This document shows, piece after piece, positions 2,757 through 31,050 of a stretch of DNA of 32,000 nt (position 1 is its first letter; every line of letters begins with the position of its first letter). A program made the translations under genes and the position numbers. The stretch spans positions 1,530,001-1,562,000 of the forward strand of contig NC_014972.1 of the NCBI RefSeq assembly GCF_000186885.1, given 5' to 3'. Below the pieces are notes generated by a model, which was not told the DNA's origin, did no database searches, and saw only the letters and a list, made by a program, of their open reading frames with translations. The stretch is from Desulfobulbus propionicus DSM 2032 (GTDB taxonomy: Bacteria > Desulfobacterota > Desulfobulbia > Desulfobulbales > Desulfobulbaceae).

Positions 2757-2871
2757 GGTTGTTCTCCGAAAAAGCGTATGAGCTTGTTGGTCTATTCGTC
2801 TGTAGGATTTTGGTCGGGAGGGGTTCGTTGTTTGCCTCGCGGACCGGTCCCGCTACAGGTGATCGATCTTC

Positions 2872-4479: not shown

Positions 4480-7400
4480 GGACGCTGTCCTTGGAGAGCA
4501 ACTCCTCAAGGGCCTGTTCGAGAAAGGCCCGATTGCGGTAGGGACTGTCGGCGGCGCCGGTGGGGCAGACCGAGAGGCAGTTGCCGCAGCCCTTGCACAG
4601 GGCTTCATCGATGTGGGCGTGCCAGCCCCCCACGGTGTTGGCTTGCAGGGTCACCGCGTGATAGAGACAGACATTGGCGCAACGGCCGCAGCCGCGGCAC
4701 AGCTGGTCGTCGATGGCCGCGGTGAATCCCTTGGACTGGCGGGGGCCACGCGGCATGGCCGCCGCCACCATCACCGCCGCCGCCGTTCCCTTTTTTAGCT
4801 TGGAAACGTTGATGTCCGGCGGTTCGGCCAAATACAGGCCGGGCACCGAGGTGGCGCAGGGATAGGCAAAGGGGATGCCGGTGATCCCGCGCTCCTGCAT
4901 CAGCGGCTCGACCGGGGCGCTCGGCAGTCCTTCCTGGTGACTGTAGGCGATGCGCCGCCGGGCCTTTTCCCCGAGGATGACCGTGCCGGCCCGCAGGATC
5001 TGACTGTGGCCGTCGGATTCGATCAATATCTGAAAGTCACCCAAGGTGCCGCTGATGCCCTTGACGTTCCAGTCCGGGAAGTTGTGGATATTGGCATGAT
5101 CAACCAGATCGGTGAGCGGCTGCTCGGCGGTCCCGAAACGGAAGACCTCGTGATCGCTGTCCGCCAGCGTCAGGGCGCTGGTGATGGTCGCCTGGGAGTT
5201 GCCGATGACCGCGGCGGCAAAGTTGTAGTTGCGGTCCACCGTCGGCAGCGGCTTGAGGGTCAGGGTCCGCTTGATCGAGCGTTGCAGCAATCCCTTGAAC
5301 CGGTCCAGGGCCAATGCTGGATTGGATTCGACCAGCCGGAGAATCTCGCCGCGCAGGTTGCAGGTCTCGACCATGGAACGGCTGATGCCGGTACCGTGGA
5401 ACAGGTTGTTTTTCAACCGGCTGCGTTGATCGGTACAGGCGCTGCACACAAAATTGAGCGGGCAGCAGACGCAGGAGGCGAGCACCAGGCGGGTGATCCC
5501 CTTTTCCCGCACCGCATGGATGATGGCCTGGGAGCCTTCCTCCACGCAGGCCGAGGCGAGCATCTCGGTGTGGACGATGTCCGGGTCGGTGGCGGCCAGT
5601 TGTTCGAGGTAGTCGTTCATGCCTTCCAGCCAGCCCAGGCTGTCGTTGCAGCGGCAGACAAAAACACCGATGCGGATCTCCGGCGACAGGCCGGAGTCTG
5701 GCACCGAGACCGTGCGGCCGTGTCCCTTGGTCTTGTTGGAGGCGCCGCCCAGCAGCAGCATGGCACGGGCGGCGGCGTCAAAACCCCGCACGATCATGTC
5801 GTTGACATTGGGCCGCGCCGCCTTGGGCCCATAGGCGCGGATGATGTCGTCGCCCTTGATGTTGGGGGCGATGTTCGGATCGGCGACGATCACCGCGCCG
5901 CACTGTTCGACGACCTCGTCTTTTTCCTGGAAATGGTCGATGGCCTTGAGCGCGCCGCAGGCGGCGACGCACTGCAGGCATTCCGAGCACACGCCGCATT
6001 GCAGGCAACGGCTGGCCTCGGCCGCCATCTGGGATTGGGTGAAGCCCGTGGCCACTTCCTGAAAACTGTGCATTCGCGTGGCTGCCTGGAGTTCGGGCAC
6101 ACGGGTGCGCGGTTGCTTGGGCAGATCCTCGGGAATACAACGGAAATCCTTGGCGTTCGGCCGGGACACCGCACTCTCCTCGCGGATGCCGCTGAGGTCC
6201 GCGTGGATGGCACGCGCCGCCTTGCGCCCGGTGGCCATGGCCTTGACCACCGAGGAAGGACCGGAAACCGTGTCGCCGGCGGCGTAGACCCGGGCCATGG
6301 TGGTGTGCAACTCCTGATCGGTTTCGATGAAACCGCGTTCGCTGACCGCGATCCGGCCGCCGAAGCTCTTGGCGGTATAGCCGCCCACCTGGCCGATGGC
6401 CACGAAGGCGCGGTCAAAGGCACGTTGAACAGGTTGCTGCCCCTCGGCCACCACCGGCCAGGCGATGCCGCGGCTGTCCGGTTTACCCGGTTGGGTGCGC
6501 ATGCATTCCAGGTGACTGAAGCGGCCGTTTTCGCCCCGGAAGGCGACCACCTGGGTGGCGTCGATGATCGTCACCCCCTCCTCGACCGCCTCGCGGACCT
6601 CGTCCGGATCGGCCGGGATGTGTTCGGCATCGAACCAGGAAACGATGCTCACCTGGGCGCCCATGCGGGCCAGGGTACGGGCCAGGTCAAAGGCCGAGTT
6701 GCCGTCGCCGATCACCGCCACCTTTTCCGGTAGACTGGTCAGTGCCTCCCATTCCTTGCGCGCCAGGAACGCCAGGCATCCTTCCACTCCCGGCAGATCC
6801 TCGCCCTCGACACCCATCCGCCGGTCCTGCCAGGTGCCGGTGGAGAGGATCAGGGCATCGTGTTCCCGGGACAGACGATCAAGGTCGGCGGCCAGATCAA
6901 TGGGGTGATTGGCGACAAAGTTGACTCCCATCTGTTCGATCAGGTGGATCTCGCGGTCGAGAATGGCACGCGGCAGACGATGGGCGCCGATGCCGTAGCG
7001 GAGCAGTCCGCCGACCTCGGGCTCCTTTTCAAAGACCGTGACCCCGTAGCCCTTGCGCGCCAGGTCGGCCGCGGCGGCGATCCCCGCCGGACCGGAACCG
7101 ATCACCGCGATGTTCTCGGGCCGTTTCGCCACGGTTTGCTCCGCCGTGATCTGAGCGGCGGCCTCGGTGCTTTCGTAGTCGGCGAGAAAACGCTTGATCG
7201 CCCGAATCGACACCGGATCGTCGACTCCGCCGCGACGACAGGCTTCCTCGCAGGGATGGGTGCAGACCCGGCCGCAAATGCCGGGCAGGACATTGTCCCG
7301 GCGGATCAGGGCCAGGGCCTCGGCATATCTGCCTTGGGCGGCCAGGGCGATGTAGCCTTGGGCATTGACCCCCAGCGGACAGTTTTCCTGGCAGAGCGGC

Positions 7401-7852
7401 TGGCGACGCTTGTCGATCCAAGGTCGGCCAGGCAGGCTGGTGCGGGCGTTGTAGCGCAATGCCCGGCCGCCATCCGGATGGTTCACGGGGCAGGCGGCCA
7501 CGCATTTGCCGCACAGGGTGCAGCGGTCGGTGTCGATAAAGGTCTGCTCCTGATCGATGCGGACACTGAATCCCTGAGAGGTGTGTTTGATAGAGCTAAT
7601 TCGTGCCGGCAGCAGGGTGCGGATCGAGGTGTTGCGGATGATTCGGATCAGGCCCGGTCGATGGGCAAAATTGAAGGTCAAGCCGGAGGGCAGGCGGTAT
7701 TCTTCGGCCGCCAGTTTGCGGTCCAGGTCGGGATCGCCATCGATCAGGGTTACTGGAATACCCAGTTCACCCAGCTTGTTGGTGGCGGCGATGCCCTCCG
7801 GGGTGGCGCCGGCGACGATCACCCGATACAATCGTTCTTTCTGTCGTTTCAT
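4472..7852 (-). CDS. Large HdrA-like/GltD(NfnB)-like multidomain flavo-iron-sulfur oxidoreductase (HdrL-like, 1126 aa)
   Basis: - N-terminal degenerate Rossmann motif: YRVIVAGATPEG.
- Ferredoxin motif: CTLCGKCVAACP.
- Glutamate-synthase-small-subunit-type module: RYAEALALIRRDNVLPGICGRVCTHPCEEACRRG, IAVIGSGPAGIAAAADLARKGYGVTVFEKEPEVGGLLRYGI, VAVIGDGNSAFDLA, VYAAGD.
- HdrA-type Cys-rich modules: CLQCGVCSECLQCVAACGA, IGVFVCRCNDSLGW, LVLASCVCCPLNFVCSAC.
- C-terminal 2x[4Fe-4S] motifs: CRGCGRCANVC and CKGCGNCLSVCP.
- The start ATG overlaps the korC stop (ATGA). Confidence 0.8.
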   Translation of the reverse strand: MKRQKERLYRVIVAGATPEGIAATNKLGELGIPVTLIDGDPDLDRKLAAEEYRLPSGLTFNFAHRPGLIRIIRNTSIRTLLPARISSIKHTSQGFSVRIDQEQTFIDTDRCTLCGKCVAACPVNHPDGGRALRYNARTSLPGRPWIDKRRQPLCQENCPLGVNAQGYIALAAQGRYAEALALIRRDNVLPGICGRVCTHPCEEACRRGGVDDPVSIRAIKRFLADYESTEAAAQITAEQTVAKRPENIAVIGSGPAGIAAAADLARKGYGVTVFEKEPEVGGLLRYGIGAHRLPRAILDREIHLIEQMGVNFVANHPIDLAADLDRLSREHDALILSTGTWQDRRMGVEGEDLPGVEGCLAFLARKEWEALTSLPEKVAVIGDGNSAFDLARTLARMGAQVSIVSWFDAEHIPADPDEVREAVEEGVTIIDATQVVAFRGENGRFSHLECMRTQPGKPDSRGIAWPVVAEGQQPVQRAFDRAFVAIGQVGGYTAKSFGGRIAVSERGFIETDQELHTTMARVYAAGDTVSGPSSVVKAMATGRKAARAIHADLSGIREESAVSRPNAKDFRCIPEDLPKQPRTRVPELQAATRMHSFQEVATGFTQSQMAAEASRCLQCGVCSECLQCVAACGALKAIDHFQEKDEVVEQCGAVIVADPNIAPNIKGDDIIRAYGPKAARPNVNDMIVRGFDAAARAMLLLGGASNKTKGHGRTVSVPDSGLSPEIRIGVFVCRCNDSLGWLEGMNDYLEQLAATDPDIVHTEMLASACVEEGSQAIIHAVREKGITRLVLASCVCCPLNFVCSACTDQRSRLKNNLFHGTGISRSMVETCNLRGEILRLVESNPALALDRFKGLLQRSIKRTLTLKPLPTVDRNYNFAAAVIGNSQATITSALTLADSDHEVFRFGTAEQPLTDLVDHANIHNFPDWNVKGISGTLGDFQILIESDGHSQILRAGTVILGEKARRRIAYSHQEGLPSAPVEPLMQERGITGIPFAYPCATSVPGLYLAEPPDINVSKLKKGTAAAVMVAAAMPRGPRQSKGFTAAIDDQLCRGCGRCANVCLYHAVTLQANTVGGWHAHIDEALCKGCGNCLSVCPTGAADSPYRNRAFLEQALEELLSKDSVHE

Positions 7853-8451
7853 TGCGCCTTGGCTCCTGTCTGGCCGGCGGCCCGTTTTTCCCGACCCTTG
7901 AGGGTGGACAGACCGTAATCAAATCCCTTGGTGAAGGCCTCGATGTTGCGTTCCTCGGTGCCCTTGGGCACTGACTGGCGGATGGTGGCCTGGGCGGCCT
8001 CGCTGGAAACCGCCTTGGTGATGGCGGTACAGAAACCGAGCATGATGATGTTGGCCATCATCTTGTTGCCCAGATTCTCGGCCATGCGGGTGGCCGCGAT
8101 GGCGAAATGGTCGCAGGGCGCGTTTTCCGGGTTGACCAGGTCTTGGTCGACCAGGAGTACCGACTCGGGCACCAGGGCTGGCGCGAATTTGTCGTAGCCG
8201 GCCTGGGACATGGCCACCAGGATCTTGGGGGTGTTGACGTAGGGGTAATGGATCGGGACGTCGGAGATGATAACCTGGGCATTGCAGGCGCCGCCGCGCG
8301 ATTCCGGGCCATAGGCCTGGACCAGGGTGGATTCCTTCTTGTCGCCGAGCGAGGCCGCCATGCCGAGGATCCGACCGGCCAGAATGATGCCCTGGCCGCC
8401 GAAACCGGTGACGATGATCTCGGTCTGGCTGGATGGTGCGTTTTTGCTCAT
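7849..8451 (-). CDS. korC: 2-oxoacid:ferredoxin oxidoreductase gamma subunit (probably 2-oxoglutarate-type)
   Basis: The sequence IIVTGFGGQGIILAGRILGMAA...YGPESRGG is the characteristic gamma-subunit motif. Size is 200 aa. It is the last gene of a delta-alpha-beta-gamma order like OorDABC/KorDABC. Substrate specificity is not provable from sequence alone. Confidence 0.8.
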   Translation of the reverse strand: MSKNAPSSQTEIIVTGFGGQGIILAGRILGMAASLGDKKESTLVQAYGPESRGGACNAQVIISDVPIHYPYVNTPKILVAMSQAGYDKFAPALVPESVLLVDQDLVNPENAPCDHFAIAATRMAENLGNKMMANIIMLGFCTAITKAVSSEAAQATIRQSVPKGTEERNIEAFTKGFDYGLSTLKGREKRAAGQTGAKAQ

Positions 8452-8482
8452 GGTGTTTCCCGGAATGGAGAAGAGAAAAGGA

Positions 8483-9331
8483 TCAATCGTCGTTGCATGG
8501 ACGGCAGATTTGATTGTACCGATCGTCGCAGGTGGTGCGATCGATGTCGATGAACGTGCCGATCACCACCCCCTTGGCGAAATCGATGTCCGCCTGGGCC
8601 GGATCGGCACCGTTCTTGATGATCGTCCGATCCTGGTAGAGTTTGAGGGTATCGAGGGGCTTTTCCTTGTTGCGCCGGCCGTAATTGATGGGGCAGGGCG
8701 AGAGCACCTCGATGAAGGAAAATCCCTTGCGGCTGATGGCTTCGTTGATTGCCGTGGTTAGGTCCCGGGTCTGGAGAATGGTCCAGCGAGCCACATAGGA
8801 GGCGCCGGCGGCATAGGCCAGCAGCGGCAGGTTGAACGGCGCGTCCGGGTTGCCCAGCGGCGTGGTGGTCGATTTGGCCATGCTCGGCGTGGTGGCCGCC
8901 ACCTGGCCGCCGGTCATGCCGTAGGTCAGGTTGTTGACGCAGATCACGGTCAGGTCCATGTTGCGCCGCGCCGCATGGATGAAGTGATTGCCGCCTATGG
9001 CGAACAGGTCGCCGTCACCGGAAAAGACGATCACCTTGAGCTCCGGGTTGGCCATCTTGATGCCGGTGGCAAAGGGAATGGCCCGGCCGTGGGTGGTGTG
9101 AAAGGAGTCGAGCTTGATGTACCCGGCTCCACGCGCCGAGCAGCCAATGCCCGAAACCATGGTGAACTTGTTGTAGGGGATGCCGGTGGCCTTGATGGCG
9201 CTCAGGCACGAAGAAAACACCGTGCCGATGCCGCAACCCGGACACCAGATATGGGGGATGCGGTCGGTGCGGATCAGGTCGTCCAGCGGATGTTCGGGCT
9301 GCTTGGCCAATTTTTTCGGATTGGTGGTCAT
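8483..9331 (-). CDS. korB: 2-oxoacid:ferredoxin oxidoreductase beta subunit (TPP-binding)
   Basis: The start MTTNPKKLAKQPEHPL...IWCPGCGIG carries the beta-subunit Cys motif. The TPP motif is VFSGDGDLFAIGGNHFIHAARRN. The ATG lies 4 nt after the korA stop. The track ORF's extra 34 N-terminal residues overlap korA and were rejected. Confidence 0.85.
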   Translation of the reverse strand: MTTNPKKLAKQPEHPLDDLIRTDRIPHIWCPGCGIGTVFSSCLSAIKATGIPYNKFTMVSGIGCSARGAGYIKLDSFHTTHGRAIPFATGIKMANPELKVIVFSGDGDLFAIGGNHFIHAARRNMDLTVICVNNLTYGMTGGQVAATTPSMAKSTTTPLGNPDAPFNLPLLAYAAGASYVARWTILQTRDLTTAINEAISRKGFSFIEVLSPCPINYGRRNKEKPLDTLKLYQDRTIIKNGADPAQADIDFAKGVVIGTFIDIDRTTCDDRYNQICRPCNDD

Positions 9332-9335
9332 AAGC

Positions 9336-10481
9336 TTAAAATTTCTCCTGAATGCACTCCAGCACCTTGTCCGGGTGAATGATTTTGCCGCCGGCACTGC
9401 CGACCAGATAGGCTTGGGCTTGGCCGCCGGCACAACGCTCGACCTCGTAGTGGACCTGACCGAGGTTGATTTCCACGGTGATGAAGCCCTTGACCCGGGC
9501 CGCGATCTCGCGGATCAGCTTTTCGGGAAAGGGCCAGACCGTGACCAACCGCAACAGTCCGGCCTTGTAGCCCATGGCCCGGGCCTGGTCGACCGCGCTC
9601 AGGCCGGTGCGCACCGAGATGCCGTAGCTGACGATGACGATGTCGGCATCCTCCATCCGGTAACTCTCGGTCTCGATGATGTCGTCGAGGTTATTGCGGA
9701 TTTTGCCCTTGATCCGCGCCATCATCTCTTCCTGGGCCTCGACGGTCATCGAAGGGTAGCCGCGCTCGTCGTGGGTCAGGCCGGTCACGTGGATGTTGTA
9801 GCCGTCACCAATGGCTGGCATGGGGGCCACGCCGTTGGCTCCCGGTTCGTACAGCCTGAACCGGTCCTTGCGGCCGGTGGGTTTGGGCCGGTCGATCAGG
9901 CGGATCTTGCTGGCTTCGGGGATGACCACCTTCTCGCTCATGTGGCCGACAATTTCATCGGCCATGAGCAGCACCGGCACCCGGTATTTCTCGCTCAGGT
10001 TGAAGGCGCGGATGGTCTGGTAAAAACAATCCTGGGGCGAGGAGGGGGCCAGGGCAATCAGTTCGTAGTCGCCGTGCGAGCCCCAGCGGGCCTGCATCAT
10101 GTCGCCTTGGCCGGTCTGGGTGGGCAGGCCGGTGGACGGGCCGGTGCGCTGCACATTGACGATCACGCAGGGGGTTTCGGTGCACACGGCCAGGCCCAGG
10201 TTCTCCATCATCAAGCTGAATCCGGGGCCCGAGGTGGCGGTCATTGACTTGACCCCGGTCCAGGCCGCGCCGAGAATCGAGGCGATGGCCGCGATCTCGT
10301 CTTCCATCTGGATAAAGGTGCCGCCGATGTCGGGCAGGCGTTCGGCCATGTGTTCGGCGATCTCGGTGGCCGGGGTGATCGGATAGGCGCCGAAGAATTT
10401 GCATCCGGCCGCGATGGCCCCCTCGGCGCAGGCCACGTCGCCGGTGATGTAATGTTCGCCGGTAAGCACGGCAGGTTTCAT
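9336..10481 (-). CDS. korA: 2-oxoacid:ferredoxin oxidoreductase alpha subunit
   Basis: Supporting motifs are ITGDVACAEGAIAAGCKFFGAYPITPATEI, TATSGPGFSLMMENLG and PCVIVNVQRTGPSTGLPT, the typical alpha-subunit signature. Size is 381 aa. Confidence 0.9.
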   Translation of the reverse strand: MKPAVLTGEHYITGDVACAEGAIAAGCKFFGAYPITPATEIAEHMAERLPDIGGTFIQMEDEIAAIASILGAAWTGVKSMTATSGPGFSLMMENLGLAVCTETPCVIVNVQRTGPSTGLPTQTGQGDMMQARWGSHGDYELIALAPSSPQDCFYQTIRAFNLSEKYRVPVLLMADEIVGHMSEKVVIPEASKIRLIDRPKPTGRKDRFRLYEPGANGVAPMPAIGDGYNIHVTGLTHDERGYPSMTVEAQEEMMARIKGKIRNNLDDIIETESYRMEDADIVIVSYGISVRTGLSAVDQARAMGYKAGLLRLVTVWPFPEKLIREIAARVKGFITVEINLGQVHYEVERCAGGQAQAYLVGSAGGKIIHPDKVLECIQEKF

Positions 10482-10502
10482 ATCAGGTCTCTCGCGGAAA
10501 AA

Positions 10503-10778
10503 TTATTTGGAAACGGCTGCTGGCTCGGTCTCCACCGAATAGATGGCGAACTCGGGGCAGATGATCTCACAGTAGTGGCAGTTGACGCATTCGCCGGGCT
10601 TGGTGACCACCGGCGGGTGGTACCCCTTGCGGTTGAACTTGTCGGAAAACTGGAGGATGTCCTTGGGGCAGAACTCGATGCAGTAGCCGCAGCCCTTGCA
10701 TCGGTCGTCGATGATGTACACCGTGCCCCGGGTGACTTGGATGTCCTGGGCGTCAAGAGGTACTCGCCAAAATGCCAT
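10503..10778 (-). CDS. korD: 2-oxoacid:ferredoxin oxidoreductase delta subunit (2x[4Fe-4S] ferredoxin)
   Basis: A 91-aa protein with CKGCGYCIEFCP and CVNCHYCEIICP. It is the first gene of the operon, 21 nt upstream of korA. Confidence 0.8.
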   Translation of the reverse strand: MAFWRVPLDAQDIQVTRGTVYIIDDRCKGCGYCIEFCPKDILQFSDKFNRKGYHPPVVTKPGECVNCHYCEIICPEFAIYSVETEPAAVSK

Positions 10779-11182: not shown

Positions 11183-11210
11183 TTGCTGTTTTTTTCAGAC
11201 CTGGTATATT
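11183..11210 (+). promoter_or_regulatory. Candidate sigma70-type promoter for the TSUP permease gene
   Basis: TTGCTG (11183..11188), a 16-nt spacer, then TATATT (11205..11210), about 65 nt upstream of the ATG at 11274. Pattern match only. Confidence 0.4.
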
Positions 11211-11273
11211 GACACGAAAATAAAATCTATCGTGTTTGTGTTGCCCACCCCCTCACCTTTCAAGGAGACGCCC

Positions 11274-12188
11274 ATGCTGTTTCCCCTCTCCGGCATCACC
11301 GTCGATCCGTGGCTCCCGCCCCTCGTTGCCTTTGTCATTTCCTTTTTCACCTCCATGGGCGGCATTTCCGGGGCCTTTCTCCTCTTACCCTTCCAGCTGT
11401 CGGTGCTTGGCTACACCCACCCATCGGTCAGTTCCACCAACCAGTTGTACAATATCGTCGCCATCCCTTCGGGTGTATACCGCTACTGCAAGGAGGGGCG
11501 GATGGTCTGGCCCCTGGCTTGGGCGGTGGTGATCGGTACTCTGCCCGGGGTGCTGATCGGCGCCGTGGTGCGGGTGACCGGCTTGCGCGACCCACGACAT
11601 TTCAAGCTGTTCGCCGCCGTGGTCATTCTCTATATCGCCCTCAAGATGATCAAGGATCTGCGCCGACGACCTGCCGAGGCGGCAGCCGCCTCCAAGGGCG
11701 GTCCATTGGCCGCCACCTACGGCAACCCAGGGACCACGGTGACCATTACCCATCGCAACCTGAAGCGGATCGGCTATACTTTTCAGGGAGAATCCTACGA
11801 TGTGTCGGTCATGGGAATAGGCGTCCTCTGCTTCATCGTCGGTATCATCGGCGGCATCTACGGTATTGGCGGCGGCGCGATCATCGCTCCCTTTCTCGTT
11901 ACCTTTTTCGGCCTGCCGGTCTACACCGTGGCCGGGGCGGCTCTGATGGGCACCTTCGTCACCTCGGTGGCCGGCGTGGTCTTCTACACGGCCATCGCGC
12001 CGCTTTATCCGCAGCTCTCGGTGGCCCCGGACTGGCTGCTCGGCATTCTCTTTGGCCTGGGCGGCATGGCCGGCATGTATCTGGGGGCCCGCTGCCAGAA
12101 ATTCGTTCCCGCACGGGCGATCAAAGGGATGCTGGTGGTCATCATGCTGGGCACGGCCCTCAAGTACATCCTCGAATTCCTCAAATAA
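11274..12188 (+). CDS. TSUP (TauE/SafE) family anion permease, 304 aa
   Basis: A polytopic membrane protein with the internally duplicated 4+4 helix pattern and Gly-rich helices (FFTSMGGISGAFLLLPF..., IIGGIYGIGGGAIIAPFLV) typical of TauE/SafE-like transporters. The ATG at 11274 is preceded by AGGAG at 7 nt. The track's GTG at 11232 has no RBS. Confidence 0.8.
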   Translation: MLFPLSGITVDPWLPPLVAFVISFFTSMGGISGAFLLLPFQLSVLGYTHPSVSSTNQLYNIVAIPSGVYRYCKEGRMVWPLAWAVVIGTLPGVLIGAVVRVTGLRDPRHFKLFAAVVILYIALKMIKDLRRRPAEAAAASKGGPLAATYGNPGTTVTITHRNLKRIGYTFQGESYDVSVMGIGVLCFIVGIIGGIYGIGGGAIIAPFLVTFFGLPVYTVAGAALMGTFVTSVAGVVFYTAIAPLYPQLSVAPDWLLGILFGLGGMAGMYLGARCQKFVPARAIKGMLVVIMLGTALKYILEFLK

Positions 12189-12250: not shown

Positions 12251-13510
12251 TCAGGGTTGGGCGAACAGCTGGCCCACGGTCGCCGGAATGGCGCCCTTGG
12301 GAACCAGACCGTGATCCTTGCCCACGCTGTAGACTCCGAACCACTGTTCCGGATCGTCCGCATCCTGGCGCAGGGACTCCTCCGGTCCCTTGGCGCTCTT
12401 CCACCACTCGTCCTGCAGTTCAAAGAAAACCAGACCGCTGAAGCGCTCCTTGCCTGCGGCGGTGCGGATATCCCGCCAGACCGAAGTAAAGGTCGCGGGC
12501 ACGTCCTCGATCTTGTGGCCGCCAAATCCCGGCACCCAGGGTTTGGGTTCGAAGGGGGAGGTCGACAGGCCCACCTGGGTGATGAGGATCGGCTGTTTCG
12601 ATTCCCTGGCCAACTGTTCCAGATAGCCCTGGTAGGTTGTCCCGGTCACTGAACCGGGCGGGGAGGTGCGCACGCCGTTGGCATAGGTGTAGACGTTGAG
12701 GCAGATCAGATCCCCCATGTCCGGCACGAGGATGTCCTTGCGGCTGACCTCCAGGTCTGGTCGGTCGGCGATCGGACCGATGTGGGTCCAGCTGGTATGG
12801 CAGTAGAGATGGCGTTGGCCGTAGCGCGTCAGCTCATAGTCCATGGCCTCGTCCACCAGCTTGGCCATGGCCACCTCGGTGGGCGTGCGGTTGGTGACGT
12901 GCAGGTGTTTGCCTTTGTACTCGCGTACCTCGGGGTGGCGTTGATTGGTTGATTTGACGCACTTGGCCTGGAGTTCGTCGCCAATGGAAAACAGCACCAG
13001 CCGATCCGGGCGGCCCACCTTGTAGGTGTGATCGATCACCTCCTTGATGTCGTTGAGGGTCTTGGCCTGGAAGGCCGGGGCGAGGAAATCCTCCTCATAG
13101 GCCCAGATCCATACATCCTGGCCGTAGACCAGGTCGGTCTTGTCCAGGGCGGCGAAGAAATTGGGCGGCATCAGCCGGGGAAACACATGGAGATAATTGA
13201 CATTCATCGCCTTGATCAGGGTCAGATGATCGTTGTAGCGGTTGTCGTTGCCGGGTTGGGCGCCGCGTACCGGCGTTTCGCCGGGAAGAAAGGGCGAGTA
13301 GCCCATGCCACGGAAAAAAATCGGGGTGTCCGGGGCGCGAGCGTCAACCAGTGTGTGCCCCCGGACCACGAAGCGGCTGGGCGTGGGGGTGGCCGGGTTG
13401 AGGGTCATGGTCCTGTCGGCTTGGGCGGCATGGCTTGCGGTGTACAGGGACAGGAACAGGGCGAGCAGGGGAATGGCAGCAAAAAGGCGGGGTGGTGTGT
13501 TCATGGGCAT
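12251..13510 (-). CDS. Secreted TIM-barrel glycoside-hydrolase-like protein (family not assignable by eye)
   Basis: The N-terminal signal peptide is MPMNTPPRLFAAIPLLALFLSLYTASHAAQA. The body shows a GH-A clan-like beta/alpha pattern (IFFRGMGYSP, IKAMNVNYLHVF, LFSIGDEL, ILITQVGLSTSP, VFFELQDEWW). The start could be 13510 or 13504. Confidence 0.55.
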   Translation of the reverse strand: MPMNTPPRLFAAIPLLALFLSLYTASHAAQADRTMTLNPATPTPSRFVVRGHTLVDARAPDTPIFFRGMGYSPFLPGETPVRGAQPGNDNRYNDHLTLIKAMNVNYLHVFPRLMPPNFFAALDKTDLVYGQDVWIWAYEEDFLAPAFQAKTLNDIKEVIDHTYKVGRPDRLVLFSIGDELQAKCVKSTNQRHPEVREYKGKHLHVTNRTPTEVAMAKLVDEAMDYELTRYGQRHLYCHTSWTHIGPIADRPDLEVSRKDILVPDMGDLICLNVYTYANGVRTSPPGSVTGTTYQGYLEQLARESKQPILITQVGLSTSPFEPKPWVPGFGGHKIEDVPATFTSVWRDIRTAAGKERFSGLVFFELQDEWWKSAKGPEESLRQDADDPEQWFGVYSVGKDHGLVPKGAIPATVGQLFAQP

Positions 13511-23247: not shown

Positions 23248-23490
23248 AAGAACGCCGCCGCTTTTCAGCCGTTGCCCTTGGTTGGCCGATTCGCACGCGC
23301 CATGTGTGCGCGCTGCCCGGTTTTCTCGAACAATCTCTTGAAATACAAGCCTTTGTTGAGTATCACTTGGCGATTGCCGCCCCAGTGGCCGCCTTTTTTA
23401 ACCCGTCGCCGCCAGCCCTGCGCGTCCCCCGGCAGGCTTGATGGCGTCCGGGCCTGCATTGTTGTCCAACGGACAAAGGAAACGATCGTC

Positions 23491-25080
23491 ATGCCTGAGT
23501 TGATGTGGAAAGGGAAGGAACAGGTGATCAACCATCACCTCGAAGTGCCGGTACGGGTGCTGAAGCGGCATTTTGCCTTCAACGGCGACGCGGACGGCGT
23601 CAATTCCACCGGCAACACCATCATCCACGGCGACAACCTGGAAGCGCTCAAGGCGCTGCTGCCCGAGTACGAGGGCCGCATCCGCTGCATCTACATCGAT
23701 CCACCCTACAACACCGGCAACGAGTCGTGGGTGTACAACGACAACGTCAATGAGCCGCAGATCGTCAAGTGGCTCGGCCAGGTGGTGGGCAAGGACGGCG
23801 AGGATCTGTGCCGCCACGACAAGTGGCTGTGCATGATGTATCCGCGGTTGCAGCTGCTCCGGCGGCTGCTGGCCGAGGACGGCAGCATCTGGATTTCCAT
23901 CGACGACAACGAGCAGGCCCATCTGCGGGCGGTCATGGACGAGATTTTCGGCCAGCGGAACTTCATCACCACCGTTATCTGGCAAAAGGTCTATTCTCCG
24001 AAAAATTCGGCCCGTCATTTTTCCGAAGACCATGACTTCATCATGGTGTACGCGAAAAATGCCAGCCAATGGGTGCCCAACCCCATGCCGCGCACCGAGG
24101 CGCAGAACAAGGCCTACAAGAACTACGACCACGACCCGCGCGGTCCCTGGAAGGCGAGCGACCTTTCCGCCCGGAATTATTACGGCGAGGGCACCTATGC
24201 CATCACCTGTCCCTCGGGCCGGGTCATCGACGGCCCGCCCACAGGAATGTATTGGCGAGTATCACAGCAAAAATTCCTGGAAATGGACCGGGATAAGCGT
24301 ATCTGGTGGGGCAGGACCGGTGACAATGTACCGGCGATCAAGCGATTTCTCACCGATGTCAAACAGGGCGTGGTGCCGCAAACCCTATGGCCGTACCAGG
24401 AAGTCGGCCACACCCAGGACGCCAAGAAGGAACTGCTGGCGGTACTCGATTTCGCCACCTCGGCCGACGTGTTTGTCACCCCCAAGCCGACCCGGCTGAT
24501 CGACCGCATTCTCCACATCGCCACCGACAAAGATGCCATTATCCTCGATTCCTTTGCCGGTTCGGGCACCACCGGTCACGCGGTGCTCAACCTCAACCGC
24601 CAGGACGGCGGCAACCGCACCTTCATCCTCATCGAGATGATGGACTATGCCGAGACCATCACGGCCGAGCGGATCAAGCGGGTGATCAATGGGTATGGCG
24701 AGGGCAGCAAGGCCGTGGCCGGCACCGGCGGCGGCTTCACCTACTGCACCCTGGGCGAGCGGGTCTTTGACGACGAAGGCTTTCTCAACCCAAACCTCGA
24801 TCGGGCGGCCCTCCGCGACTATGTGGCCCGCTCCGAAGGGCTGCCGGGTGCGGAGGCGGGCGAGCATCCCCATTGGCTGGGCGAACGCGACCGCACCGGC
24901 TACTATTTCTATGACGACCCGGAGCGGCCCACGGTGCTTAACCTGGAATTCCTCGCCACCCTCACCCGCAGAAACGAGAGCTATCTCATCTATGCCGACT
25001 CGTGTCTGCTCGACGAGGCGTTCATGCAGCACCATCACATCCTGTTCAAAAAAATTCCCCGGGACATCTCCCGCTTCTAA
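23491..25080 (+). CDS. mod: Type III restriction-modification system, Mod (N6-adenine DNA methyltransferase, beta class)
   Basis: The catalytic motif IV, IYIDPPYNTG, precedes a variable central region, and SAM motif I, DSFAGSGTTGHAV, is near the C-terminus. This is the beta-class order typical of Type III Mod. Other motifs are HGDNLEALK and WISIDDNE. It lies directly upstream (9 nt) of res. Confidence 0.85.
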   Translation: MPELMWKGKEQVINHHLEVPVRVLKRHFAFNGDADGVNSTGNTIIHGDNLEALKALLPEYEGRIRCIYIDPPYNTGNESWVYNDNVNEPQIVKWLGQVVGKDGEDLCRHDKWLCMMYPRLQLLRRLLAEDGSIWISIDDNEQAHLRAVMDEIFGQRNFITTVIWQKVYSPKNSARHFSEDHDFIMVYAKNASQWVPNPMPRTEAQNKAYKNYDHDPRGPWKASDLSARNYYGEGTYAITCPSGRVIDGPPTGMYWRVSQQKFLEMDRDKRIWWGRTGDNVPAIKRFLTDVKQGVVPQTLWPYQEVGHTQDAKKELLAVLDFATSADVFVTPKPTRLIDRILHIATDKDAIILDSFAGSGTTGHAVLNLNRQDGGNRTFILIEMMDYAETITAERIKRVINGYGEGSKAVAGTGGGFTYCTLGERVFDDEGFLNPNLDRAALRDYVARSEGLPGAEAGEHPHWLGERDRTGYYFYDDPERPTVLNLEFLATLTRRNESYLIYADSCLLDEAFMQHHHILFKKIPRDISRF

Positions 25081-25089
25081 AGGTACCGC

Positions 25090-27738
25090 ATGGAACTGCT
25101 GCCCTATCAACAACAGGTAATCCGCGACCTCGCCGATTTCTTGGCGGAGGTGGAACGACTGGGCGACCTGCGCCAGGCCTTTGCCCGGTACTGGCAGGAG
25201 CGCGGTATTGCCCGGCCGGAGGCCTATCGCGACACCATCAAGGGCGTGCCGCATCTGTGCATCAAGGTACCCACCGGCGGCGGCAAAACCTTCATCGCCG
25301 CCAATGCGATCAAAACCATCTTTGACGCCTTGAGCGTCTATGCCCGGCCGGTGCCCCGGGCCGTGGTCTGGCTGGTGCCGTCCAACGCCATCCTCGAACA
25401 GACCGAGCGGAGCCTGGGCAGCCCGCGCCACCCCTACCGCCGCAAGCTCGACACCCTGTTCAACGGCCGGGTGCGGGTGTACACCAAGGACGAGCTGTTG
25501 CAGGGCGCCGGGTTCAACCCCGCCAGCGTGCATGAACATCTCAATATTTTCGTGCTCAGTTACGCCTCGTTCCGCACCAGCAACAAGGAGGGCCGCAAAG
25601 CCTACCAGGAAAATACGTTCCTTGCTTCCTTCACCCATCGGATGCAGGCCGAAGAATGCCTGACCGGCGTCGATGAATCGGCCCTGATCAATGTCATCCG
25701 CGCCATGAACCCGGTCTGTATTGTCGACGAAAGCCACAATGCCGGTTCGATCTTGAGCAAGGAGATGCTCGCCAATTTCAACCCCAGCCTGATTCTCGAC
25801 CTCACCGCCACCCCGAGGACGGACAGCAATATCATCAGCTACGTCGATGCGGCGCAGCTCAAGACCTGTCACATGGTCAAGCTGCCGGTGATTGTCTACA
25901 ACCACCGCTCCAGCAAGGAGGTGATCGGCAACGCCATCCAGTTGCGCAACAGTTTGGAACAGCAGGCACGGACGGAACAACAGGCGGGCGGCGACTACAT
26001 CCGGCCGATTGTCCTCTTTCAGGCCGAATCGAATACCGGCGACGAAGACCGGACCACCTTTGACGACATCAGGAAACGGCTGATCCATCTGGGCATCAGC
26101 GAAGAAGAGATTGCGATAAAAACGGCAAATATCGACGAGCTCAAAGATATCAGCCTTCTTTCGCCCGAATGTTCCATCCGCTACATCATCACCGTCAATG
26201 CGCTCAAGGAAGGCTGGGACTGCCCCTTTGCCTATATTCTGGCCACCATCGCCAACCGCCATTCCCGAGTGGACGTGGAGCAGATTGTCGGCCGGGTCTT
26301 GCGGCAACCCTATGCCCGGCGTCAGCACAACAACCTGCTCAACAATTCGTACGTTCTGGCCTCTTCCGCTGATTTCATCACCACCCTGGACAGGATTGTC
26401 GCCGGACTCAATCAAGCCGGTTTTTCCAAAAAGGATATGCGGGCCACGGATATGGCAACCGTGGAAGCCGAACCACAGGGACATGCCCCCGCGCCCCGGC
26501 AGCAGGGCTTGTTCGATCCGCCGGTTGCCGATGGACAGCAGCCGGAGGTGAACAGTGCGGAGAGGGAAGCCGTCGAATGGCCGGACAGCCTGACAGGGTC
26601 CTCGGATTCCACTGTTGGGCTGGGCGAGGCGTCCGCCCCGGATACCGCTGTTCAGGCGATACTGGCCCAGGCGGACAAGGAAAGCAGGGCATACGAACAA
26701 CAGGCCGCGCAAAGCGCCGCTGAGACGGTTCCGCTGGAGGTGAGGGAAAAAATGAATATATTCGGCATGGTCGCCCAATTTGCCCCGCTTGCCGTCACTC
26801 TCCGTTTACCGCAGTTTTTCATCCGGGTTCCGGGGATGAGCCTGTTTGGCGACGGCGCGACTCTCCTCAACAAAGAAGAGCTGTTACAAGGGTATCGCCT
26901 TAGCCAGGCCGATAGCCGGATCGATTTTCAGGCAATCGAAGGGGAGGCGTACCGGATCGACTTGGAGGAAGTGGGCGAGCATGATTACAAACCCCGTTTC
27001 TGGAAACTCCAGCATGCAAGCCGGGAACGGCTGGCCGAGTATTTGGTGGCGTTGCCTCCCGAACCGCAAAAACGGGAAATTGTTCAACGGCTGTGTGGGT
27101 TGATCGGTAATATGCGGCCCTTTGGCGATCAGGAGATAAAAAAATACGTGCAACGAATTGTGGATGATATGCACCCGGACCACATCCATGAATGCCTGAA
27201 CCGCATACGTGAATATAGCTACCGCGACAAAATCAAGGAGAAGATAACGGCCCTGGCCACAGATCACGCGGAGACTGTTTTTTATCAGTGGCTGGCGGCG
27301 GACAGAATTGAGATGCAGGCAAGCTATGCCCTGCCCGAGTCGATTGCCCCAGTGGCCGTTGCCCCGGCTATTCCGGCAAGCCTGTATTCGTCCGAGGGGC
27401 AGCTCAATTCCTGGGAGGCAAAGGTGATCAACGAGGTCGCCAATCTGGACAACATCCTGTTTTGGCACAAGATCATCGAGCGCAAGGGGTTTTGTATCAA
27501 CGGCTGTATCAACCATTATCCCGATTTTCTGGTGCGCACCAAAAACGGCAAGACCCTGTTGATCGAGGCCAAGGGCGACGACCGGGACAACTCCGATTCC
27601 AGCCGTAAACTCAAACTCGGTCAGGCTTGGGCGAACAAGGCGGGCAACGATTTTCGCTACTTCATGGTGTTTGACACCAATCCCGTCGAGGGGGCCTACC
27701 GGCTCGATGCCCTGGTGCCGGTGATCGCCAACCTTTGA
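25090..27738 (+). CDS. res: Type III restriction enzyme, Res subunit (SF2 helicase plus C-terminal PD-(D/E)xK nuclease)
   Basis: - Helicase motif I: KVPTGGGKT.
- Motif II: IVDESHN.
- Motif III: LTATP.
- Motifs V/VI: NALKEGWDCPFAYIL and QIVGRVLRQP.
- C-terminal nuclease core: YPDFLV...LLIEAKG. Confidence 0.85.
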   Translation: MELLPYQQQVIRDLADFLAEVERLGDLRQAFARYWQERGIARPEAYRDTIKGVPHLCIKVPTGGGKTFIAANAIKTIFDALSVYARPVPRAVVWLVPSNAILEQTERSLGSPRHPYRRKLDTLFNGRVRVYTKDELLQGAGFNPASVHEHLNIFVLSYASFRTSNKEGRKAYQENTFLASFTHRMQAEECLTGVDESALINVIRAMNPVCIVDESHNAGSILSKEMLANFNPSLILDLTATPRTDSNIISYVDAAQLKTCHMVKLPVIVYNHRSSKEVIGNAIQLRNSLEQQARTEQQAGGDYIRPIVLFQAESNTGDEDRTTFDDIRKRLIHLGISEEEIAIKTANIDELKDISLLSPECSIRYIITVNALKEGWDCPFAYILATIANRHSRVDVEQIVGRVLRQPYARRQHNNLLNNSYVLASSADFITTLDRIVAGLNQAGFSKKDMRATDMATVEAEPQGHAPAPRQQGLFDPPVADGQQPEVNSAEREAVEWPDSLTGSSDSTVGLGEASAPDTAVQAILAQADKESRAYEQQAAQSAAETVPLEVREKMNIFGMVAQFAPLAVTLRLPQFFIRVPGMSLFGDGATLLNKEELLQGYRLSQADSRIDFQAIEGEAYRIDLEEVGEHDYKPRFWKLQHASRERLAEYLVALPPEPQKREIVQRLCGLIGNMRPFGDQEIKKYVQRIVDDMHPDHIHECLNRIREYSYRDKIKEKITALATDHAETVFYQWLAADRIEMQASYALPESIAPVAVAPAIPASLYSSEGQLNSWEAKVINEVANLDNILFWHKIIERKGFCINGCINHYPDFLVRTKNGKTLLIEAKGDDRDNSDSSRKLKLGQAWANKAGNDFRYFMVFDTNPVEGAYRLDALVPVIANL

Positions 27739-27859: not shown

Positions 27860-28915
27860 TCAATCGGCGTGCAGGGTGACGGCAAAGCAGCTGAACAGGG
27901 CCCAAACGCGGTCGCCGATGGCCAGATCGAGCACCGCGCCGCCACTGGTGGACACCACGGCGCACAGCTCCGTGCCGTCCGCAAGGCGGAGCAGATATTC
28001 CGAGCTGACGGTTCCCCGGTTGATCCGCGCCACTTCGCCCTGAAAACAATTGTCGGCGCTGCATGCCGGCAGGTCCGTGCCGCCCTGGAGCACCACCCAG
28101 GGGGCCTTGACCTCGGCCGTGATCAGTTTGCCCGGCCGCAGACCTAACCGCTCCAGGCTTTCGAGGGTGATCAGGGTAGTCACCTGATAGCCGCCAAGGT
28201 TGACCAAAGTCACCCGCGCCTGGATATCGCCGCGTTGCACGTCGGTGATCTTGCCAAAGAAGGCATTTCTGGCGCTGGTTTTGCGGGTCGATTCCCGCTC
28301 CATGAACAGCTTGGTCACCCGTTGCAGTTCCTCGTCGGAAAACGAGACATGGGCCGTGGTCAGGTTGGGAGTTGAGTGGCCAAGCAGCTTCTGCACCGCC
28401 GGCAGGGGCATGTTGCCGCGCACCAGCTCCACCGCCCGCGCCCGGCGGATCATCTCCGGGCCGCCCAAGCGCTTGTCAAAGCCGCAGGCCTCGGCGCGCT
28501 CGTAGAATTTGCGGCGGACAAAGGCGGGGTCCACGCAAAAAAGTTTGTCCAAGGAACTGCGGAAATCCGGGTCCGCCAGGGTCTCCCTGATTTCCCGGCT
28601 CAACTGTGCGGAGATGGTGACGGAGCGTTGGCAGGGTTCCGCTCCATCGAGATCGCGGATGCACACGGTCTGTGCCTCGATGTCGGCAAACGGATCCAGG
28701 GCGAGGACCTCGCTCAGCTTGGCGCCGGTATAGCGGATGAGCAGGAACACCAGCAGGATCCGGCGGCGGGCGAGGCGGACGTCGCACCGCGGCGTCTCCT
28801 CGACCCAGCGGCGAAAGGACTGTTCCAGTTGGGCCAGCTGGACCGTGTCCAGGCAAGGCGATTGGTCGATGGGCACGGCACGCATGTCCTGCCCGGAGAG
28901 GGGTTGCTGCTTCAT
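27860..28915 (-). CDS. TunR-like molybdate/tungstate-responsive regulator: catalytically inactive tyrosine-recombinase-fold DNA-binding domain fused to tandem Mop (TOBE) domains
   Basis: - Recombinase-like box I: IRYTGAKLSEVLAL, with Lys where the catalytic Arg should be.
- Box II: EMIRRARAVELV...VQKLLGHSTPNLTTAHVSF, with no nucleophile Tyr.
- Mop domain 1: SARNAFFGKITDVQRGDIQARVTLVNLGG...ITAEVKAPWVVL.
- Mop domain 2: SADNCFQGEVARINRGTVSSEYLLRLADG...VWALFSCFAVTL.
- Start taken at MKQQPLSG (28915). An alternative ATG is at 28885. Confidence 0.7.
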   Translation of the reverse strand: MKQQPLSGQDMRAVPIDQSPCLDTVQLAQLEQSFRRWVEETPRCDVRLARRRILLVFLLIRYTGAKLSEVLALDPFADIEAQTVCIRDLDGAEPCQRSVTISAQLSREIRETLADPDFRSSLDKLFCVDPAFVRRKFYERAEACGFDKRLGGPEMIRRARAVELVRGNMPLPAVQKLLGHSTPNLTTAHVSFSDEELQRVTKLFMERESTRKTSARNAFFGKITDVQRGDIQARVTLVNLGGYQVTTLITLESLERLGLRPGKLITAEVKAPWVVLQGGTDLPACSADNCFQGEVARINRGTVSSEYLLRLADGTELCAVVSTSGGAVLDLAIGDRVWALFSCFAVTLHAD

Positions 28916-29072
28916 CTGGTTTGTTTCATGCGCTTGGTGCTGGCCGCCACGTTGCGGGAGCAGGGCGGATTGGCCAGACCGGAGCCGCGCCTGCCGCTGT
29001 CGGGGGGCTGGAGGCGAACCGTGGCCGGTGAGGAGGCCGTGGCGGTAAAAAAATGGGGATGCAAAATATCGC

Positions 29073-29453
29073 TCACAGATGTTCCTGATCAACCCAGTGT
29101 TGGAAGCGGTCCACCAACCGCCAAAAGTCACGGATCGCCTGTTTGCCCGCCTCGGTCAGCCAGGCCCCGCCACCCTGCCTGCCGCCGGCCTGCTTTTCCA
29201 CCAGGGGCTCGGGCGCGAGCGCGTTCATGTTCTCCACCAGGTGCCAGGCATGGCTGAAACTCATCTGCATCGATTTGGCGGCGGCGGACACCGAGCCGTA
29301 TTCATCGATCCGCTCAAGAAGAACGATCCGCCCCCAGGAGAGGTAGGTCTCGCCGTTGTTCTCGATCCATAGGCGGCCCTTGATCTGGACGCCGCTGCGC
29401 ATTCGGCCGGCGGCCATGGCGTTTTCTTCCTGGGATTTTTTTGCTTTGGGCAT
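29073..29453 (-). CDS. ModE N-terminal-domain-only winged-HTH protein (no Mop domains)
   Basis: LWIENNGETYLSWGRIVLLERIDEYGSVSAAAKSMQMSFSHAWHLVENMNALAPEPLVEKQAGGRQGGGAWLTEAGKQ aligns position-for-position with the E. coli ModE DNA-binding domain (RISLLKHIALSGSISQGAKDAGISYKSAWDAINEMN...ATGGKGGGGAVLT). The protein ends soon after this region. The start is uncertain (29453, 29417 or 29402). Confidence 0.7.
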   Translation of the reverse strand: MPKAKKSQEENAMAAGRMRSGVQIKGRLWIENNGETYLSWGRIVLLERIDEYGSVSAAAKSMQMSFSHAWHLVENMNALAPEPLVEKQAGGRQGGGAWLTEAGKQAIRDFWRLVDRFQHWVDQEHL

Positions 29454-29624
29454 GAATGATTGTGAAGGTAATGGAAAAGGTGGCCAGCCATCGTCACTGG
29501 TGTGCGCCCATAGTAGCGAGGCGACCGGAACCCCCGCAAGACCTAATACGATCGGCACATGCTTTCGTGGGAAATATTGACCATTATCATCATTTTCGTT
29601 GATCATTCTCATGAATTTTTTTTC

Positions 29625-29653
29625 TTGACTTTCCTTGGTTTGCCTTATAAATA
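29625..29653 (+). promoter_or_regulatory. Strong candidate sigma70 promoter for sat
   Basis: TTGACT (29625..29630) is followed by TATAAATA (29646..29653), which gives TATAAA at a 15-nt spacing or TAAATA at 17 nt. It is preceded by a T-run/AT-rich UP-like stretch. The implied leader is about 110 nt before the sat ATG. Confidence 0.5.
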
Positions 29654-29769
29654 TCCCGCATGACTGAATGCTGGTTCAGTTTTCCGTGTAGGACCAGATC
29701 CGGCAATCCTGTCCGGAATTTACGTAGGTTGAATGTTCTCACAAGAATAAAACCAGAGAGGAAAAAATT

Positions 29770-31050
29770 ATGAGTTCAAAATTGGTAGCGCCCCATGGCG
29801 GAAAAGGTCTTGTTTGTGCCCTGCTTGAAGGTGCCGCACGTGAAGCAGAGTTGAAGAAAGCCGCTGGATTGAAGCAGGTACAAGTCTCCGATCGCGCCAA
29901 GGGCGACCTGATCATGATGGGTATCGGCGGTTTCTCTCCGCTGAGCGGTTTCATGACCAAAGCTGACTGGAAAGGCGTTTGTGAGAATTTCCAGATGGCT
30001 GACGGCACCTTCTGGCCGGTACCGATCACCTTGGACGTTTCCGCTGCGGACGCTGCCGGCATCAACGTTGGCGACGAGATCGCTCTGGTTAACAAAGGCG
30101 AGACCTACGCAACCATGAAGGTCACCGAGAAATACGAGATGACCGAAGCCGACAAGCGTTGGGAGTGCGAGAAAGTATTCAAGGGCGAAGGCGAAGAGTC
30201 TGCTGACGATAAATTCTGGGAAGTCGCCCCCAAAGATCATCCCGGCGTTATCATGGTTCTGGCTCAGAAAGAGTTCAACCTGGCCGGTCCGGTTAAAGTA
30301 CTCTCCGAGGGTGAGTATCCGAAAGAGTATCCGGGTGTATACCTGAAACCTGCCGAGACCCGCGCTATGTTTGAAGAGCGTGGATGGGCCAACGTTGCCG
30401 CTCTCCAGCTGCGTAACCCGATGCATCGTTCCCACGAGTTCCTGGCCAAGATCGCCATCGAGGTTTGTGACGGCGTTCTGATCCACAGCTTGGTCGGTAA
30501 CCTGAAGCCCGGCGACATTCCTGCCGACGTGCGCGTTGAAGCCATCAAGATCCTGATCGACAACTATTTCGTCAAAGAGAACGTCATCAACGCTGGGTAT
30601 CCGCTTGACATGCGTTATGCCGGTCCTCGCGAAGGCCTGCTCCACGCCACCTTCCGTCAGAACTATGGTGTCAACAACATGCTGATCGGTCGTGACCACG
30701 CTGGCGTTGGTGACTTCTACGGCCTGTTCGAGGCACAGCAGATTTTTGATCGCATCCCCTACACCGGCGATCCTTCCAAAGACCTGCTCTGCAAGCCGAT
30801 GAAGATCGACTGGACCTTCTACTGCCACAAATGCGATGGTATGGCTTCTCTGCGTACCTGCCCGCATACCAAAGAGGATCGCGTCATCCTGTCCGGTACC
30901 AAACTGCGTAAGGCTCTCTCCGAGGGTCAGCCGGTTGTTGACCACTTCGGTCGCGAGGAAGTTCTGGTTCGCCTCCGCAAGTACTATGCCGGCCTGACCG
31001 AGAAGGTTGAGGTCAAGATGCAGGGTGCCGCTTCCGGCGCTGCCATGTAA
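29770..31050 (+). CDS. sat: Sulfate adenylyltransferase (ATP sulfurylase), homo-oligomeric dissimilatory/assimilatory type
   Basis: Diagnostic motifs are [13 protein letters not shown] and IGRDHAGVG, and the N-terminal PUA-like domain is present. Size is 426 aa. The RBS is GAGAGGA. Codon usage is visibly different from neighbouring genes, with T-ending ggt/cgt/gtt/gct codons. Confidence 0.95.

Follow-up and report, generated by a model that had tools for sequence, protein, structure and literature searches.

Can a molybdate/tungstate (Mo/W) sensor of the ModE type be divided between two neighbouring genes? The question is raised by a locus in Desulfobulbus propionicus DSM 2032, where two adjacent minus-strand genes encode, respectively, a ModE-type winged helix without Mop domains and a tyrosine-recombinase-like domain fused to two Mop domains. 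We analysed the surrounding 32,000 nucleotides (nt) of contig NC_014972.1 (positions 1,530,001 to 1,562,000 of the forward strand), referred to below as the window, whose first letter is position 1. A sequence-only reading of this DNA had proposed that the two genes form a split Mo/W sensor, whose proteins either act together or compete for operators. The results favour a different explanation, to which we assign a probability of about two in three, namely that the genes encode two separate Mo/W-related transcription factors that have become neighbours by chance in a rearranged locus for Mo/W homeostasis, that no sensor has been split, and that the larger protein is a TunR-type regulator with a palindromic operator.

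The two genes, their parts and the nearest promoter match lie in the window as follows.

27860..28915, minus strand: TunR-like regulator gene, 351 amino acids (Pfam/NCBIfam, PDB sequence matches, AlphaFold2 with Foldseek, homologues)
28301..28858, minus strand: integrase-like, putatively DNA-binding domain of the regulator, residues about 20-205 (alignment to XerH, XerA and XerD, and family conservation)
27869..28285, minus strand: two Mop/TOBE domains of the regulator, residues about 211-349 (alignment to 1o7l/1h9s)
28916..29072, minus strand: intergenic spacer of 157 nt between the TunR-like gene and the ModE-N gene
29073..29453, minus strand: gene for a stand-alone ModE N-terminal winged helix (ModE-N), 126 amino acids, without Mop (TIGR00637 and PF00126 only)
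29583..29612, minus strand: sigma-70-like promoter match ATGAGA-18-GATAAT 5' of the ModE-N gene (consensus scan, 9/12; weak evidence)

Domain content and family of the two proteins

The longest open reading frames (ORFs) of both genes extend further in the 5' direction, to 27860-29131 and 29073-29612 on the minus strand, and the starts at 28915 and 29453 are likely because they agree with the lengths of the homologues, which are about 350-365 amino acids for the TunR-like protein (including a cluster of 351 amino acids at 99% identity) and 126-128 amino acids for ModE-N. The coordinates and the gap of 157 nt (28916-29072) given by the sequence-only reading are correct, and hidden Markov model searches bear out its description of the domain contents, that is, a ModE-N protein without Mop and an integrase-like fold with two Mop domains. 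The 126-residue protein matches TIGR00637 (ModE_repress N-domain, E 4.6e-22) and HTH_1 (PF00126) and corresponds to the N-terminal winged-helix and dimerisation domain of Escherichia coli ModE (PDB 1b9m, 1o7l). The Pfam/NCBIfam profile search found no Mop domain in this protein and no ModE-type winged helix in the 351-residue protein; unlike ModE, in which the winged helix and the di-Mop module stand in one chain, neither Desulfobulbus protein has both halves.

In the TunR-like protein, residues 52-187 match Phage_integrase (PF00589) with 28.8 bits, which is barely above the Pfam cut-off of 27.1, and the protein also matches XerA, XerD and XerC models. Its C-terminus consists of two TOBE/Mop domains (TIGR00638, E 1.1e-29), whose PDB sequence matches to ModE and ModG have E values of 1e-16 to 1e-20. 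An AlphaFold2 model built with 26 homologues as input (predicted local distance difference test score, pLDDT, 71.7) retrieved ModE/ModG di-Mop structures in Foldseek at E about 1e-11 and the catalytic domains of XerH, XerA and integrases at E about 4e-6 (TMq 0.40).

The TunR family of tungstate-responsive regulators, reportedly described by Kazakov and colleagues in 2013, is said to combine XerC/XerD-like DNA-binding domains with ModE-like effector domains and to occur in sulfate-reducing Deltaproteobacteria; its type member we take to be DVU0179 of Desulfovibrio vulgaris Hildenborough. The 351-residue protein has the same architecture, a XerC/XerD-like domain fused to a ModE-like di-Mop effector, and it is likewise present in sulfate-reducing Thermodesulfobacteriota, the window itself carrying sat and Hdr/Flox-type genes. 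Judged by this architecture, the assignment to the TunR type, which the sequence-only reading had made, appears to be right. The protein has at least 2313 homologues, the scan matched 398 GTDB species genomes, and its relatives are mostly labelled Desulfobulbus, Desulfobacterales or Desulfobacteraceae. Look-ups by exact sequence returned no record for the TunR-like protein of the window or for a second protein, P0219. A regulator made of a dead recombinase and Mop domains is therefore a family already described, to which the present case adds a member and not a concept. We also considered TaoR (Rajeev et al. 2019), a tungstate-responsive regulator of aldehyde oxidoreductase in Desulfovibrio-type bacteria, and rejected it as a relative of the TunR-like protein because it consists of a helix-turn-helix and a periplasmic-binding-protein-like domain.

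A predicted operator and its candidate target

The genomic context of the TunR-like gene was compared among 82 loci, comprising 80 genome loci with flanks of 10 kilobases (kb), the additional locus L081 and the window. Clustering of the neighbouring ORFs shows that in 54 of these loci a TauE/SafE-family permease gene (PF01925) adjoins the TunR-like gene and is transcribed divergently from it, while a MOT1-family molybdate transporter gene (PF16983) recurs in 11 and modA/modB in 7. The word ACACGAA is found in 42 of the 51 TauE-TunR intergenic regions, always within a palindrome of fixed spacing, GACACGA-N12-TCGTGTC, and in 50 loci a copy with at most two mismatches stands less than 600 nt 5' of the regulator gene. 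Each of the 11 MOT1-containing loci has such a copy as well, which in 10 cases immediately precedes the MOT1-family gene, irrespective of the orientation of that gene, and in the remaining one (L076) lies 5' of the regulator gene instead. The consensus was derived from the 80 genome loci, out of the scan that matched 398 species genomes.

The palindrome is attributed to the TunR-like protein because the loci bearing it lack ModE-N, and we infer that GACACGA-N12-TCGTGTC is the TunR-like operator. The TunR family too has a palindromic operator adjoining its own gene and Mo/W transporter genes, and the loci of the present subfamily show the palindrome at the regulator gene and at genes for Mo/W transport. 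The subfamily may differ from TunR in that its predicted targets are chiefly TauE/SafE-family permeases or MOT1-family transporters and not modABC or tupABC. In most relatives the operator would sit in the common promoter region of the regulator and divergent TauE genes or before the MOT1 gene. A CTTGACA/TTGACA box abuts the palindrome in 33 of the 51 regions, with TATAAT a frequent reading of the AT-rich spacer; this overlap suggests promoter occlusion and autoregulation, and repression is likely because the palindrome overlaps the promoter region. Searches of the leader of about 200 nt between operator and regulator gene, and of the window, for a molybdenum cofactor (Moco) riboswitch or other RNA gave no Rfam matches except one tRNA in L013.

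In the window, the predicted operator and the gene that follows it are placed as given here.

11207..11240, no strand: predicted TunR-like operator tattGACACGAAAATAAAATCTATCGTGTTtgtg, core 11211-11236, one mismatch to GACACGA-N12-TCGTGTC
11274..12188, plus strand: TauE/SafE-family permease gene, predicted target of the TunR-like regulator (PF01925, E 1.6e-37)

The window copy is a palindrome of 26 base pairs, GACACGA-N12-TCGTGTT, and the only site in the window with at most one mismatch; none of 100 shuffles produced a match at this stringency, and the sequences flanking 11211-11236 agree with the extended consensus too. The palindrome stops 38 nt short of the ATG (11274) of the TauE-like gene, which is preceded by the ribosome-binding site AAGGAGA and whose product belongs to the same BLAST cluster as the TauE-like ORF divergent from the TunR-like gene in the other loci. 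The rest of the window contains just two matches at three mismatches, both away from the regulator genes and from sat. Since the sole window site lies immediately 5' of the permease gene, the regulator most likely switches this gene in response to Mo/W supply, from a distance of about 16.6 kb between regulator gene and predicted site, which is a further difference from TunR.

With respect to the substrate of the permease, import of sulfate by a TauE-family protein (PMC11535334) makes a tetrahedral oxyanion plausible, and the presence of the palindrome before MOT1-family genes elsewhere points to molybdate or tungstate. We consider the TauE-like permease a candidate carrier of tetrahedral oxyanions, be it molybdate, tungstate or sulfate, and it may be a previously unrecognised molybdate/tungstate carrier that replaces modABC.

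Several points weigh against the explanation by two separate factors, one of them a TunR-type regulator acting through the palindrome. The comparison of the 351-residue protein with DVU0179 was one of architecture. The operator is assigned purely from co-localisation, and the promoter hexamers near the window site are poor. In the close Desulfobulbus relatives L001-L003, L005, L006 and L008-L012 no site was found within 10 kb of the regulator gene, so that the link between regulator and target would there, as in the window, have to act at a distance. The direction of regulation is a guess. Finally, the terminator scan found no terminator-like site in the spacer 28916-29072, so the TunR-like and ModE-N genes could be co-transcribed, which may fit a functional link between them.

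Two of these points, the co-localisation and the relatives whose regulator gene has no palindrome nearby, would also be expected if the palindrome were the site of another regulator of the TauE and MOT1 genes and the TunR-like protein bound a different sequence. We regard this as unlikely, given that the palindrome follows the TunR-like gene across Desulfobacterales, Desulfobulbales, Syntrophobacterales and metagenome-assembled genomes labelled Nitrospiraceae, with TauE-like and MOT1-like partners alike, and that the other recurrent regulator families are fewer (PAS histidine kinase in 11 loci and sigma-54-type response regulator in 10, compared with 50 loci with the palindrome).

Adjacency and divergence of the two genes

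The sequence-only reading had suggested a survey of whether ModE-N-only genes co-occur with TunR-like genes, and we carried it out over flanks of 6-10 kb. Among the 82 loci, only 3 have a ModE-N-only gene directly 5' of the TunR-like gene, namely the window, L002 and L003; a full-length modE is found some kilobases away in a few others. In L081 a truncated gene stands 5' of the TunR-like gene, and it was rejected as a close ModE-N homologue as it gave no match at E <1e-20.

ModE-N itself is widespread. More than 100 clusters of 126-128 amino acids, with identities of 69-83% across named Desulfobulbus species, were found, and the 126-residue protein is conserved in D. propionicus, D. elongatus, D. 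oligotrophicus and D. rhabdoformis. Its homologues mostly adjoin modCBA or tup-like ATP-binding cassette (ABC) genes and have no TunR-like neighbour: the order is tup-like ABC, ModE-N, cytochrome c3, modCBA and modE in L082/83, ModE-N, modCBA, modE, PF0610 and PAS kinase in L086, and ModE-N followed by modCBA in L087, whereas in L088 ModE-N is divergent from a tup-like ABC operon and in L084/85 its context is unrelated; a TunR-like gene is absent from the neighbourhood of ModE-N in all of these contexts. The usual partner of ModE-N thus appears to be an ABC transporter for Mo/W.

The divergence of the sequences leads in the same direction. Compared with the local full-length ModE, ModE-N shows 44-45% identity in the N-domain and the TunR-like protein 32-34% identity in the di-Mop module, which argues that the two are not recent products of a fission and, unlike the halves of ModE, not each other's recent partners.

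These observations bear on the proposal that ModE-N depends on, or competes with, the TunR-like di-Mop sensor, giving two DNA-binding domains and one sensor. The genes are on the same strand and separated by a short spacer free of terminator-like sites, L002 and L003, both from Desulfobulbales, repeat the gene order of the window, and ModE-N has no sensor domain of its own. Against this stand the rarity of the adjacency, the ModE-N-only homologues without a TunR-like neighbour (L082, L084, L086, L087 and L088), the absence of a recent common origin in one ModE, and the presence of the TunR-like operator in 50 loci that lack ModE-N; in addition, the spacer of the window, compared side by side by eye, has no obvious likeness to that of L002 and L003. 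We consider the dependence or competition quite unlikely, and the idea of a split ModE sensor in two cooperating genes was not upheld. A restricted form, in which the ModE-N dimer of the genomes with adjacent genes borrows the TunR-like di-Mop module in trans, either in a hetero-complex or by competition at overlapping operators, is to our judgement very unlikely; if it were true, one oxyanion sensor would drive two DNA-binding folds that are unrelated to each other.

Nor does ModE-N look like a functionless, decaying remnant of a full-length modE. Its lack of a sensor and its position in the window beside a region of seeming modE-modABC loss would fit decay, but the constant length and high identity among its numerous clusters, the presence of an intact full-length modE alongside it in L082 and L086, its low identity to that paralogue and the existence of a solved stand-alone homologue make this highly improbable. 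That homologue, 2ijl, is annotated as a 'molybdenum-binding transcriptional repressor' and is the nearest solved relative of ModE-N (E 2.8e-14, residues 37-117); it is a stand-alone chain of 135 amino acids and resembles the 126-residue protein in length and in having a single domain, whereas the Desulfobulbus ModE-N clade is distinguished by adjoining modCBA or tup-like operons. We know of no established function of stand-alone ModE-N proteins.

Under the explanation by two separate factors, the 126-residue protein would be a stand-alone DNA-binding and dimerisation domain of ModE, with a modABC or tup-like operon as its usual partner, and it probably regulates these genes without sensing the oxyanion itself. 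For E. coli ModE deprived of its C-terminal Mop domain, DNA binding independent of molybdate has been reported (McNicholas 1998, as cited in PMC12327845).

With regard to binding sites for such a protein, the window contains no ModE box of the E. coli type, TATAT-N5-11-ATATA, and a comparison of modA upstream regions among relatives revealed no clear shared motif. A D. elongatus-type contig (L082, 7379-7531) has a ModE-box-like palindrome, CACTATAT-N8-ATATAACG, which overlaps a TTGACA box in the interval between ModE-N and cytochrome c3. In that genome it may serve as an operator for ModE or ModE-N, and no counterpart of it was found in the window.

Lost catalysis, retained sensor and a rearranged neighbourhood

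The catalytic positions of the integrase-like domain were read from a residue-by-residue alignment to XerH, XerA and XerD. The position of Arg I is occupied by Lys66 (TGAKLSE), that of the hairpin Lys by Cys95, that of His II by Glu154 (PEMIRR) and that of the Tyr nucleophile by His189 (TTAHVSF), while Arg II (Arg157) and His III (His180) are retained. The R-K-H-R-H/W-Y set of an active tyrosine recombinase is therefore incomplete, and the residue changes noted in the sequence-only reading are all present; the intact RHRY tetrad, which it had named as the finding that would speak for a real recombinase, is not there. Relative to the Xer recombinases, the TunR-like protein has the catalytic-domain fold in common but differs in the replaced active-site residues, in the lack of a core-binding N-domain and in the fused small-molecule sensor.

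Conservation was followed in 81 members of the subfamily and in a wider family obtained by a library-wide search with the N-terminal 210 residues (E up to 0.001), which yielded 401 clusters at 50% identity, mainly of proteins of 330-400 amino acids. Within the subfamily, Lys occupies position 66 in 78 of the 81 members and an acidic residue, Glu or Asp, is present at position 154 in all of them, and the nucleophile position is Y in 58, H in 13, F in 7, L in 2 and Q in 1. The complete R-H-R-H/W-Y signature was found in none of the 87 full-length representatives of the wider family, in which His II is never His; the Tyr position there (88 representatives) includes 29 Y, 23 F, 19 L and 6 W.

The sensor module shows the opposite pattern. 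S214, R216, T250, S253, K270 and A271 align with S126, R128, T163, S166, K183 and A184 of E. coli ModE (1o7l/1h9s), the molybdate ligands in the ModE-molybdate structures, and these six positions are invariant in the 81 subfamily members and kept in at least 80 of the 88 wider representatives. The loss of the catalytic residues together with the conservation of the Mop positions suggests selection on the sensor and the fold and not on catalysis. From the alignment, then, the integrase-like domain is best described as a non-catalytic, putative DNA-binding module: the TunR-like protein would keep a tyrosine-recombinase fold that has lost catalysis and only binds DNA, and its di-Mop module presumably binds molybdate or tungstate at the dimer interface, as in ModE, and so alters the affinity for DNA.

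That the 351-residue protein is still an active site-specific recombinase gated by molybdate is practically excluded, for although the fold, Arg II and His III persist and most subfamily members have Tyr at the nucleophile position, the nucleophile and three further catalytic positions are replaced in the protein itself, the full signature is absent from every family member, Y, F, L, W and H are all found at the nucleophile position, the N-terminal core-binding domain is absent (the profile match begins at position 23 of the catalytic domain, at residue about 50), and in the loci compared the TunR-like genes are not associated with the ends of mobile elements.

The adjacency of the two regulator genes has a probable origin in the local rearrangement, to which the following neighbouring features are relevant.

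23272-27738, plus strand: type III restriction-modification pair (N6_N4_Mtase of 602 amino acids, ResIII of 882 amino acids)
29770-31050, plus strand: sulfate adenylyltransferase gene (sat), divergent from the ModE-N gene

The gene order in L003 is ModE-N, TunR-like, cytochrome c3, modCBA and PAS kinase. Synteny with the window is seen on both sides in L086 (Fer4, 91%; a 419-residue protein, 75%; Pyr_redox, 76%; PF0610-like, 71%), which has neither a TunR-like nor a TauE-like gene and carries the segment from ModE-N to the PAS kinase in an orientation inverted relative to the window. The type III restriction-modification pair stands where L003 and L086 have cytochrome c3, modCBA and modE, which looks like a replacement accompanied by inversion. 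A replacement of this block (cytochrome c3/modCBA, and modE) by the restriction-modification genes would have left the two regulator genes adjoining each other.

Elsewhere in the window, the TauE-like gene and its predicted operator lie between the Fer4 gene and the gene for the 419-residue protein. The latter (12251-13510, minus strand) has the GC content at third codon positions (GC3) that is typical of coding sequence and no Pfam match, and it occupies the same position in L086. In L001 and L005, genes for FapA-domain and CBS-domain proteins are found 3' of the TunR-like gene in place of cytochrome c3/modCBA, which indicates that the neighbourhood is variable within Desulfobulbus.

Molybdate is a substrate analogue of Sat, and regulation of sat by the neighbouring genes was considered for that gene. 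The intergenic region 29454-29769 has no operator-like site, just a weak palindrome of 11 nt, and the adjacency is unique to the window (sat lies next to the regulator in none of the 80 related loci); regulation of sat was accordingly rejected and the adjacency regarded as coincidence. The minus-strand run of redox genes at 333-10778 includes two FlpD/MvhD-containing proteins with Fer4 and CCG domains (Hdr/Flox-like), a Pyr_redox_2/Fer4 fusion of 1126 amino acids and a four-subunit 2-oxoacid:ferredoxin oxidoreductase (POR gamma, TPP, POR_N, Fer4). This run is typical energy metabolism of a sulfate reducer and is unrelated to the regulator genes.

The analysis adds a well-defined operator consensus for a subfamily of TunR-like regulators that is large. 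Entry of molybdate is toxic in sulfate reducers, and the consistent link of the predicted operator to TauE/SafE permeases and MOT1 transporters makes the TauE-like permease a candidate for an oxyanion carrier controlled by Mo/W. At the same time, the lineage-wide occurrence in Desulfobulbus of a Mop-less ModE beside modABC poses the question of how these bacteria sense molybdate.

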